Source: a bacterium
GTDB taxonomy: Bacteria; UBP15; UBA6099
Direction of reading: 5' to 3'
DNA length: 64,000 nucleotides
NCBI GenBank assembly: GCA_041664945.1
Contig: JBAYJY010000001.1
Span: 5,976-69,975 of the forward strand
The translations under genes and the position numbers were made by a program. The notes below the pieces were generated by a model. It was not told where the DNA came from. It worked only from the letters and a program-made list of their open reading frames with translations, and made no database searches. Below are positions 35,495 through 37,129 of this stretch, piece by piece (position 1 is the first letter of the stretch; every line of letters begins with the position of its first letter).

Positions 35495-37129
35495 ATGGTG
35501 ATTAACTTCAATTTTGATGCGATAAACGCGAGGAATCAGGAGCGTCTGCATGGCCTGAGCGCCAAGCAGACGGTTGAGAGGTTGTCGAGCGGCTTGCGAA
35601 TCAACAAAGGCGCGGATGATCCCTCCGGGCTGGCTATCGCGGCGCAGGCAAAGGCGCAGGTGCGCGGCATTTCAACAGCCCTTGGAAACGTGCAGGAATC
35701 CATTGCGCTGTACAATCTGCGCGACGCGTATTTTGAACAAATCGACCAGATGATGAACCGGATGCGGGACCTTGCGGTGCGCGCGTCGAACGACGCCACT
35801 CTAACGCAGAGAGATCTCGAAAAGCTTGACTCCGAAGCGGTGGGGCTGAAAAGCGAAATCGACCGGATGGCGTTGTCGTCGTACAAGGTTGACGGAGGGC
35901 GGCTGTTGTACAATCCCGGCGACCTCGACGTTATATGGGTGATGGACATAACCAACAGCATGACGCCGTATGCGAATTCGCTGTATAACGATTCGGCGGC
36001 GATGTTCAACCAGTTCCAAGCGAATGGTTTCGACCTTCAGATGGGCGTTGTCGGGTTCGATTCCATGGTGAGACAATATACGGATACCCAGACATTTCAC
36101 AGCTCGGCTGCCGGGTTCATGAATGACGTTGGTATTTTGAGAAGCCAGATACCGGCGCACCCGTCAGGCACGGAAAACGGGTTGACGGCGGTCAACACGG
36201 CGCTTGGTCTGGGAGGACTCGGCGGCGCTTTCAGGCCCACCGCGCAACATGTGGTCATTCTTATTTCAGACGAAGACAGCGACGATTTCTACACTCCTTT
36301 AACGGAAACCAATTATTTGGATAATATGCCGTTTGCGGCCCCTCCGGGCCCGCCAATGGTTGGCCCCTACCGCCCCGTTAATGATCCGACGGCGCATGCA
36401 GACCCTACAAACATAAAACAAAACACAATTAATGCGCTTATCGGCGCCGACGCTACGCTGCACACGGTCGGCGTTGTGGAAAGCGGCACCGCCAATTGGG
36501 CTTGGCTTCCGGGTTGGTGGAATCTTGGCACTGCCAAACATGTTCTTCAAAACAGCCCGGACATGGACTATCAGGAAGTGGCGACCGCCCCGGGAGTTGA
36601 CGGAGGCGTATATACGCTCGACACCGCAGGCGCGTGGGTTTCCAGCATAACCAACACAATGCTCGCCACCGGCGGACCGTGGGACGCCGACTTTCAGGTC
36701 GGCCCCGACGAAGGCCACATCATCAACGGACAGTTTGAATCAGTCGGAACTTCCTCGCTTGGAATCGCCGGCGTCAGCCTCGCAGCCGTAGCTTCCGCGC
36801 AAAATTCAATCACGATTCTCGACAGGGGAATAGCGACTCTCGCCGATATGCGGACCAACACCGCGCAGATTGTCAAAAGGCTCGGCCACATCGCAAACGA
36901 CCTCAGCAGTTCCCTGATAAATCTTTCAGCATACAAATCGAATATCGAAGATGCCGACATAGCGGTCGAGGTGGTCAATTCCACTATCACGCAGATAGTA
37001 AGCCGGACGACGACCTCCGCTCAGGTTCAGGCGAATGCCAATCCGGAGAATGTTAAACCGTTAGTCGATATAATCAGCAATTCGGAGCGGGTCGAAGAGT
37101 TCAACGCGTCATTCTACAATAAAAACTGA
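35495..37129 (+). CDS. fliC: flagellin with an inserted von Willebrand factor A-like domain
   Basis: N-terminal D0/D1 (INFNFDAINARNQ..LSSGLRINKGADDPSGLAIA..MRDLAVRASNDT..EIDRMA). C-terminal D1/D0 (LDRGIATLADMRTNTAQIVKRLGHIANDL..YKSNIEDADIAVEVVNSTITQI). Internal DITNS..GTENG..LISDEDSD block. ATG 35495 lies 8 nt after GGAG. Confidence 0.85.
   Translation: MVINFNFDAINARNQERLHGLSAKQTVERLSSGLRINKGADDPSGLAIAAQAKAQVRGISTALGNVQESIALYNLRDAYFEQIDQMMNRMRDLAVRASNDATLTQRDLEKLDSEAVGLKSEIDRMALSSYKVDGGRLLYNPGDLDVIWVMDITNSMTPYANSLYNDSAAMFNQFQANGFDLQMGVVGFDSMVRQYTDTQTFHSSAAGFMNDVGILRSQIPAHPSGTENGLTAVNTALGLGGLGGAFRPTAQHVVILISDEDSDDFYTPLTETNYLDNMPFAAPPGPPMVGPYRPVNDPTAHADPTNIKQNTINALIGADATLHTVGVVESGTANWAWLPGWWNLGTAKHVLQNSPDMDYQEVATAPGVDGGVYTLDTAGAWVSSITNTMLATGGPWDADFQVGPDEGHIINGQFESVGTSSLGIAGVSLAAVASAQNSITILDRGIATLADMRTNTAQIVKRLGHIANDLSSSLINLSAYKSNIEDADIAVEVVNSTITQIVSRTTTSAQVQANANPENVKPLVDIISNSERVEEFNASFYNKN

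Follow-up and report, generated by a model that had tools for sequence, protein, structure and literature searches.

The outer domains of flagellins are a large and mostly unexplored source of surface functions, and in the literature that we searched proteolysis was the only foreign function of such a domain found to have been demonstrated experimentally. The case in point is flagellinolysin (FliA(H), Clostridium haemolyticum), in which an HExxH metallopeptidase is set into the flagellin chain for display on every subunit and which has been shown experimentally in filaments. The von Willebrand factor A domain (vWFA, hereafter VWA) has a quieter record. When Eckhard et al. 2017 (Nat Commun 8:521, PMC5595980) scanned 26,587 flagellins, it emerged as the eighth commonest domain of the hypervariable region, with 21 sequences (their Table 1), and the arrangement Flagellin_N~vWFA~Flagellin_C was entered under the common taxon 'Bacteria' (their Supplementary Table 1). 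That entry is a table row, given without sequences, analysis or experiments (PMC5595980); a 2024 survey of 682 outer-domain structural clusters leaves VWA unmentioned in its main text (PMC11532411), and full-text literature searches for flagellin with VWA, vWFA or von Willebrand returned no treatment beyond that of Eckhard et al. 2017. Here we describe a gene of this category, located in a 64,000-nucleotide stretch of a bacterial contig (JBAYJY010000001.1, positions 5,976 to 69,975, assembly GCA_041664945.1, lineage UBP15; UBA6099) that was analysed as a whole and is referred to below as the window. Like flagellinolysin, the encoded flagellin carries a foreign functional domain that would be displayed on every subunit; the insert is a VWA binding fold instead of a peptidase. 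A preliminary description of the window had regarded the proteolytic flagellins as the only precedent for such a domain and had called for flagellin catalogues to be surveyed for VWA inserts; the claim of novelty fails, because the same three-part architecture has stood in print since 2017, and the 21 catalogued sequences may be members of the present clade or VWA flagellins with canonical ends. What is new is the detail of the clade, namely an insert conserved like the core, the pattern of its metal site, a C-terminal tail, orphan loci and a promoter. This adds detail and no new category, because the architecture is already tabulated and the insertion site has precedents.

VWA domains with a metal-ion-dependent adhesion site (MIDAS) are likewise put on filaments or surfaces for adhesion by SpaC (at the pilus tip of Lactobacillus rhamnosus GG), LapA and PilY1, but these reach the tip or surface as single copies by sortase, type I secretion and type IV pilus routes, whereas the VWA domain of the window protein would be on every subunit of a helical polymer exported by a type III apparatus. 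Binding has also been ascribed to members of the flagellin family itself: the Sphingomonas sp. A1 flagellin homologues p5 and p6 (PDB 2zbi, 3k8v, 3k8w), which are among our sequence matches, are credited with polysaccharide binding at the cell surface through a central domain of their own, though without a VWA domain.

A complete flagellin core with an insertion ahead of the D1 hairpin

The flagellin gene is a single open reading frame (ORF) across the reported interval. The ORF list gives 35486-37129 (+) with a TTG start, and the actual start is the ATG at 35495, which has GGAG ahead of it at 35482-35485 on inspection of the sequence. The 544-residue product has an identical entry at NCBI, MFA6447855.1, under the name 'MAG: flagellin [bacterium]'. 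Residue numbers below refer to this product, and the positions of Pfam and NCBIfam matches to the 547-residue ORF that starts at TTG. The insert was originally placed at 35912-36691, which corresponds to residues 140-399, and all the motifs then quoted (SYKVDGGRLLYN, VIWVMDITNSM, SGTENGL, VVILISDEDSD and ADFQVGPDEGHIINGQFESVGTSSLGI) are present; since ORF, domain matches and coordinates agree, the insert is a real feature of the gene.

On either side of it the protein is a flagellin. Pfam Flagellin_N matches residues 6-129 (E 4.9e-19, 69.2 bits against a cut-off of 26.6) and Flagellin_C residues 443-523 (E 8.8e-8, 32.8 bits against 23), and 25 flagellin models of NCBIfam match, the best at 1e-31. 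The hook-associated protein FlgL was rejected as an identity, TIGR02550 reaching only 6e-11 (42 bits against a cut-off of 127) where flagellin models reach 1e-31. Flagellinolysin was rejected as well: its model (flagella_HExxH, NF033876) scores 24.6 bits against a cut-off of 205 and covers the hairpin and C-terminal D1 part only, and no HExxH motif occurs anywhere in the translated flagellin sequence. Seventy distinct flagellin sequences in PDB match, headed by the 793-residue Geovibrio thiophilus flagellin 9AU6 (4e-31). An AlphaFold2 model of the full-length protein, built from the family alignment with a predicted local distance difference test (pLDDT) score of 77.9, shows helices at residues 7-31, 43-99 and 105-127, the beta-alpha units of the VWA domain at 143-392, strands at 396-401 and 409-414, and a helix at 432-515; Foldseek superposes its D0/D1 part on solved D0/D1 filaments, and the target-normalised TM-score (TMt) is ~0.8. 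The protein is thus a flagellin-family subunit with a complete D0/D1 core. The termini had at first been described as those of a textbook flagellin, which holds for this core; the C-terminus departs from it, running 19 residues beyond the canonical end.

The insert sits between helix ND1b and the D1 beta-hairpin, whose G403 is invariant in the family, and the hairpin then runs directly into helix 432-515. Nothing in the model corresponds to D2/D3, so the modelled strands and helix agree with the initial description of a chain that passes from hairpin to C-terminal D1 with no conventional outer domains. The flagellin 9AU6, solved as a filament (PMC11532411), is instructive: its N-terminal match to the window protein stops at residue 151 and its C-terminal match resumes at 667 (MQIGANEG), with an outer region of ~515 residues lodged at the same point, between FN.KKLLNGD and MQIGANEG. 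It differs in that its outer domains are D2-D5, including an Ig-like D3, and in its canonical C-terminus. The NCBIfam model of flagellinolysin ends with the hairpin segment, and residues 399-458 of the window protein match its positions 326-383/384, which again gives the same insertion point. In the FliC of Salmonella the outer domains come after the D1 hairpin. There are thus at least two insertion sites in nature, 9AU6 and flagellinolysin carrying their inserts before the hairpin and Salmonella FliC after it, and the VWA flagellin uses the known one that Salmonella does not. The place first proposed, ahead of the hairpin, was thus right; that it is unusually early was not, as 9AU6 and the flagellinolysin model share it. 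Because the 9AU6 filament bears its outer domains there, the site is compatible with a working filament.

The insert has the fold of a VWA domain

Taken by itself, the window protein is a poor advertisement for its VWA domain: the Pfam VWA match (residues 148-269, E 7.6e-4) scores 20.2 bits, under the cut-off of 23.8, so that the profile searches proposed at the outset return both flagellin models above their cut-offs and leave VWA below its own. Relatives do better. Among 24 family members, 16 match VWA at E<=0.01, the best at 4.4e-8. The L005 protein scores 25.5 bits, and a profile of 16 insert sequences matches PDB chains of VWA domains from mussel PTMP1, a bacterial vWA protein, the integrin alpha1 I domain and the I-like domains of integrins beta3, beta6 and beta8. 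An AlphaFold2 model of the insert alone (pLDDT 77, predicted TM-score 0.79) alternates between strand and helix as a VWA domain does, and all of its top 50 Foldseek matches in PDB (50/50) are VWA domains, with E down to 5e-7 and TMt 0.6-0.69 against single-domain VWA chains. These structural matches include TFIIH p44/Ssl1, BatA/BatB, integrin I domains, ANTXR1/2, vWF A3, SpaC and the vWFA domain of LapA; SpaC is a pilus adhesin and ANTXR1/2 are the anthrax toxin receptors. Because the relatives' Pfam matches, the family profile and the Foldseek results add to the sub-cut-off score of the single protein, the predicted VWA fold is well supported, and the structure prediction vindicates the original reading of a flagellin with a VWA-like domain inserted inside N-terminal D1.

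Two loops within the domain (residues 266-303 and 331-349) are modelled with low confidence, and both are largely missing, as alignment gaps, from the homologue P0001 (the L001 protein). VWA topology would place them close to the metal site, at the sheet's C-terminal edge. The second contains a tryptophan-rich stretch, NWAWLPGWWNLG (36497-36532), which is absent in P0001, and tryptophan-rich loops occur at the same place in P0007 and P0008; this loop might be a ligand- or glycan-contact element.

A metal site of integrin-beta-like type

Across the 23 family members in which residue conservation was counted, the MIDAS-like DxTxS of VIWVMDITNSM proved as sound as it had looked at first sight: D151, T or S at 153, and S155 are each found in 23/23, and S155 and M156 are nearly invariant as a pair. 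The threonine of SGTENGL, which had been taken for the MIDAS threonine, did not stand up so well, T226 being present in 6/23 and the neighbouring E227 in 23/23. The conserved pattern reads D-x-T-x-S-M ... E-x-G-L-x-A-V ... T/S-D, with glutamate where alpha-I domains have threonine, and it shares with the integrin beta I-like domain the form D-x-S/T-x-S-M ... E-x-G-hydrophobic-x-A-I/V ... T/S-D. In integrin beta3 we take the corresponding motif to be DLSYSM ... E220-GGFDAIMQA ... D251, so that the family would have the integrin beta I-like version of MIDAS. The profile of 16 inserts aligns to integrin beta3 residues 112-276, and one family member matches Pfam Integrin_beta. HMMER alignments to integrin alpha1 were gapped and uninformative as to whether T226 or E227 occupies the MIDAS threonine position; since they could not fix the register, the glutamate-for-threonine assignment is an inference from family conservation and the beta3-like motif. 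On this footing the metal site would be of integrin-beta-like type, with E227 in place of the alpha-I threonine. The kinship should not be pressed, as the residues of the adjacent site (ADMIDAS) and of the synergistic metal-binding site (SyMBS) of integrin beta are not conserved in the family when compared by eye, the similarity is weak (E ~2e-3) and the context is bacterial. The predicted MIDAS-type site is intact, and the domain probably binds a metal.

A rare family with a conserved insert and an unusual tail

Relatives are few and easily missed. Word-indexed protein searches, made with the insert alone and with the 16-sequence insert profile, found one relative each, while a profile made from two inserts, run as an exhaustive hidden Markov model (HMM) search against 1.84 billion representatives, yielded 290 matches, the top ones including ~20 proteins of 470-555 residues with the insert at about residues 130-400. 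Flagellin_N and Flagellin_C are each recognised in 21/24 such proteins (VWA in 16/24, as above), and ~20 clusters at 50% identity share the exact architecture. The VWA flagellin belongs to a rare though conserved family from uncultivated bacteria. Mean pairwise identity is 37.6% in the insert (43.6% in its first half, the core of the domain), 38.7% in the N-terminal core and 31.5% in the C-terminal core; as measured by these identities, the insert is not hypervariable and is conserved like the core. The ~20 clusters, the core-like identity and the near-invariant MIDAS residues together argue for functional constraint on the insert.

The nearest relatives of the insert outside the flagellins are giant proteins of 1,100-1,570 residues (P0004, P0009 and P0019) with 4-7 tandem integrin-beta-like VWA domains; Pfam Integrin_beta matches them at 3e-22 to 3e-31, and the flagellins may have received the domain from such proteins. 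Two further proteins, P0029 and P0049, have canonical flagellin ends and a VWA domain in the identical position. The architecture may have more than one origin.

In this clade the usual flagellin core motif DDAAG takes the divergent form DDPSG, and the C-terminus is extended. All solved flagellins that were aligned stop at the equivalent of residue 525, most clade members run 12-20 residues past the end of the Flagellin_C model, and the 19-residue tail of the window protein resembles those of L003, P0006 and P0011. Across the clade the tails take the form ...SEQ-GIG... or ...[NQ]SE[RQ]V[DE].F...F.... Of all the features, the tail and the consistently orphan character of the loci most deserve attention; the tail also poses a structural question, that of what a flagellar lumen tolerates.

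Promoter and leader

A strong terminator-like hairpin separates the gene from the iron-containing alcohol dehydrogenase gene upstream, and flagellin thus forms a transcription unit of its own. In the 420-nucleotide intergenic gap ahead of it no sigma-70-type match was found, but the gap holds a match to the promoter consensus of the sigma-28 (FliA/SigD) type, a class of sequence (TAAA-N15-GCCGATAA-type) matched twice in the window against 0.05 expected. Orthologues in L003, L014, L015 and L021-L023 have CTAAAG-N15-GCCGATAT upstream, and that in L013 has it with one mismatch; these orthologues share ~60% protein identity, and the spacer of the window promoter differs in sequence from theirs. 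The sigma-28-like promoter in L014 and L015 lies at -434 (vs -250), a ~180-nucleotide insertion having separated it from the leader hairpin. The other match in the window, an exact TAAA-N16-GCCGATA (30712-30738, minus strand), lies antisense in an unannotated ORF (30029-30907).

The predicted 254-nucleotide leader is structured (z = -3.1), and both of its hairpins with a GGA loop persist in the minimum-free-energy structure computed for 270 nucleotides of leader. In orthologues the leader has CCGACA-(A/U)GGA-UGUCGG at the corresponding position, a sequence which is close to the CsrA selection consensus, and CsrA sites do occur on flagellin mRNAs; the Shine-Dalgarno sequence ACGGAG (35480-35485) also contains GGA. 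The hairpins would on this basis be candidate CsrA sites. The promoter consensus, conserved across orthologues, would imply a FliA regulon; together with the leader it is indirect evidence, short of proof, for control by FliA and perhaps by CsrA, and so for a flagellar system elsewhere in the genome.

A proposed adhesive filament and its alternatives

We would put the chances at about even that the protein is a filament subunit through which all or part of the flagellum becomes a metal-dependent surface adhesin. The gene would be transcribed alone from its sigma-28-type late flagellar promoter, through the structured leader, and the product would leave the cell unfolded through the flagellar type III apparatus and polymerise via D0/D1. 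Because a VWA domain has its two ends side by side on one face and the metal site on the opposite one, the MIDAS (D151, T153, S155, E227 and D259) is proposed to point radially outward, where a bound divalent cation could complete its coordination with an acidic group of a ligand, be it a protein, an acidic polysaccharide or a mineral surface. Over all or part of its length the filament would in this way act as a multivalent, metal-dependent adhesin. If this is true, a VWA/MIDAS domain repeated thousands of times per filament would make an adhesin of very high avidity, switchable by cations, that parallels the pilus tip adhesins but acts along the whole filament. The clade offers a test case, with invariant metal-site residues, an insertion site validated by a solved filament, and both intact and truncated alleles in nature.

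Several observations weigh against this proposal, the sub-cut-off VWA score of the single protein among them. Neither the 43 large nor the 23 small or alternative ORFs of the window match any flagellar or chemotaxis family, and fliS, fliD, flaG, fliW and csrA were looked for in the 64 kb and not found, so the gene is indeed the orphan that it had been thought to be. No flagellar neighbours were found within ~10 kb at L001, L003, L004, L005/L019, L011 (on a 3.17-Mb contig) and L017 either, and tBLASTn with approximate CsrA, FliS and FliW queries, a weak test, returned nothing credible in the window or at these loci. The sigma-28 consensus is absent upstream of the more distant family members. 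The tail is awkward for a filament, because by a rough estimate it occupies ~2,500 cubic angstroms where the lumen affords ~1,500 per subunit (assuming a 20-angstrom channel and a rise of ~4.8 angstroms), and it should not fit an open canonical channel; processing of the tail and an altered core are possibilities. Lastly, the gene is dispensable in a sister population, since the allele there is truncated at codon 324. The cluster of the L003 orthologue at 90% identity holds 542-residue proteins together with versions of 303-324 residues, of which the 324-residue form comprises the N-terminal part up to a point within the VWA domain. The truncated allele is present on 13 contigs, including a 530-kb NCBI contig; its locus is 95.6% identical in DNA to the intact one up to a break in synteny at codon ~322, and the downstream gene (TrmO-like) is also a fragment. 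The truncation is a real rearrangement in the sister population, and intact 542-residue alleles coexist with it in other samples.

Such an allele might suggest that the whole gene has lost its function and is decaying into a pseudogene. This is very improbable: start codon, ribosome-binding site and promoter are all in place in the intact window copy, intact alleles persist beside the truncated one, and ~20 clusters at 50% identity keep invariant MIDAS residues and conserved linkers. The linkers PG.LDV and GGPW, among the best conserved positions of all, lend some credit to an unlikely alternative, in which the protein is a real filament subunit whose VWA domain is structural, neighbouring domains making contact, possibly via the metal site, to form an outer sheath. 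The sheath would stiffen or stabilise the filament or alter its hydrodynamics, much as outer-domain dimers and tetramers do elsewhere. Lattices of outer domains are documented in the filaments of C. gilardii and G. thiophilus (PMC11532411), and an insert conserved like the structural core and not hypervariable is what such a sheath would have; yet a fully conserved MIDAS-type site adjoined by variable loops is the pattern of a ligand-binding VWA domain, and many adhesins are found among its structural neighbours.

No more and no less likely than the sheath, in our estimate, is that the protein derives from flagellin with no propulsive flagellum behind it, being perhaps redeployed as a polymer or receptor, at the surface or secreted, in a host whose flagellar apparatus is reduced or absent. 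An orphan gene at every locus examined, a conserved tail of 12-20 residues seen in no solved flagellin matched, a diverged core motif, a host from a deep lineage (PolA <=43% identical to named phyla) and the flagellin homologues of Sphingomonas A1 that are credited with polysaccharide binding all lean that way. Against this, the sigma-28-type promoter, conserved across orthologues, would imply a FliA regulon; secretion would still require a flagellar-type export gate, because the protein has no Sec signal; D0/D1 is complete and the polymerisation helices are conserved; and many motile bacteria have flagellin genes away from their main clusters. A somewhat more doubtful variant, suggested by the non-hypervariable MIDAS domain on each subunit, the tail, the non-flagellar loci and the deep-lineage host, is that the clade makes a flagellin-derived adhesive fibre, possibly of altered architecture or processing, in which propulsion has been given up for attachment. 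The reading that we favour remains the metal-dependent adhesive filament.

Features of the locus and its surroundings

Table 1. Coordinates of the flagellin gene, its control signals and its domains in the window, with the truncated allele of a sister population
Feature	Positions	Strand	Evidence or remarks
Intrinsic-terminator-like hairpin and T-run after the upstream iron-containing alcohol dehydrogenase gene	35132..35170	+	Hairpin 35132-35160; 12-bp stem with 8 GC pairs, then TTTAATTTTT
Sigma-28 (FliA/SigD)-type promoter consensus TAAAG-N15-GCCGATAG	35207..35233	+	262 nt before ATG
Two hairpins with GGA loop in the 5' untranslated region, candidate CsrA-type sites	35285..35336	+	GGCA-AGGA-UGCC (35285-35296); GAAAACG-AAGGAC-CGUUUUC (35317-35336)
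Flagellin gene	35495..37129	+	544 aa plus stop; Pfam, NCBIfam and PDB sequence matches, NCBI record
N-terminal D0 and D1 helices (aa 1-129)	35495..35881	+	Flagellin_N; modelled helices; TMt ~0.8
VWA domain, sole outer domain (aa 141-398, 258 aa)	35915..36688	+	Pfam, family profile, AlphaFold2 and Foldseek
First MIDAS motif D151-I-T153-N-S155-M156	35945..35962	+	D, T or S, S each 23/23
S-G-T226-E227-N-G-L	36164..36184	+	E227 23/23; T226 only 6/23
Strand beta4 and acidic loop VVILISD259EDSDD264, MIDAS Asp and conserved acidic cluster	36251..36286	+	D259 21/23, D264 22/23; strand 251-258
Two low-confidence loops inside the VWA domain (aa 266-303; aa 331-349 with NWAWLPGWWNLG)	36290..36541	+	pLDDT <50
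D1 beta-hairpin DFQVGPDEGHIINGQFESVGTSSLGI (aa 399-424), after the insert	36689..36766	+	Strands 396-401 and 409-414; aligned to 9AU6 from residue 667
C-terminal D1 and D0 helices (aa 432-525)	36788..37069	+	Flagellin_C, model, 9AU6 alignment
19-aa tail IISNSERVEEFNASFYNKN past the canonical flagellin end	37070..37126	+	Equivalent of aa 525 is the last residue in 9AU6 and in a 282-aa flagellin (HMMER label u197)
Truncated flagellin allele (codon 324)	10001-10975 of L021, L022, L023		L022 = GCA_022704265.1, JAKJGS010000002.1

The surroundings of the gene are conserved within the lineage of the window, with the iron-containing alcohol dehydrogenase, a bifunctional nuclease and PolA on the same contig, and the flagellin gene was thus vertically inherited there. 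The DNA polymerase I (51056-53884) has homologues at 51-78% identity, and the next tier, at <=43%, is drawn from Planctomycetota, Chloroflexota, Zixibacteria, Margulisbacteria and Firmicutes; this drop outside its closest homologues places the host in a deep lineage. A GH2 glycoside hydrolase, a glpABC-like three-gene set and phosphofructokinase (PFK), along with Mla genes in a relative, point to an anaerobic user of polysaccharide or glycerol with an outer membrane. An Rfam scan of the window found no rRNA and no other RNA family.

At 16745-19188 a histidine kinase is paired with an NtrC-type sigma-54 activator; activators of this type control flagellar genes in some bacteria, and nothing ties the pair to the flagellin gene. 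Four ORFs are without any Pfam match, at 21833-25024 (-), 31003-32265 (+), 56902-58695 (-) and 30029-30907 (+), and encode 1063, 420, 597 and 292 residues, respectively.

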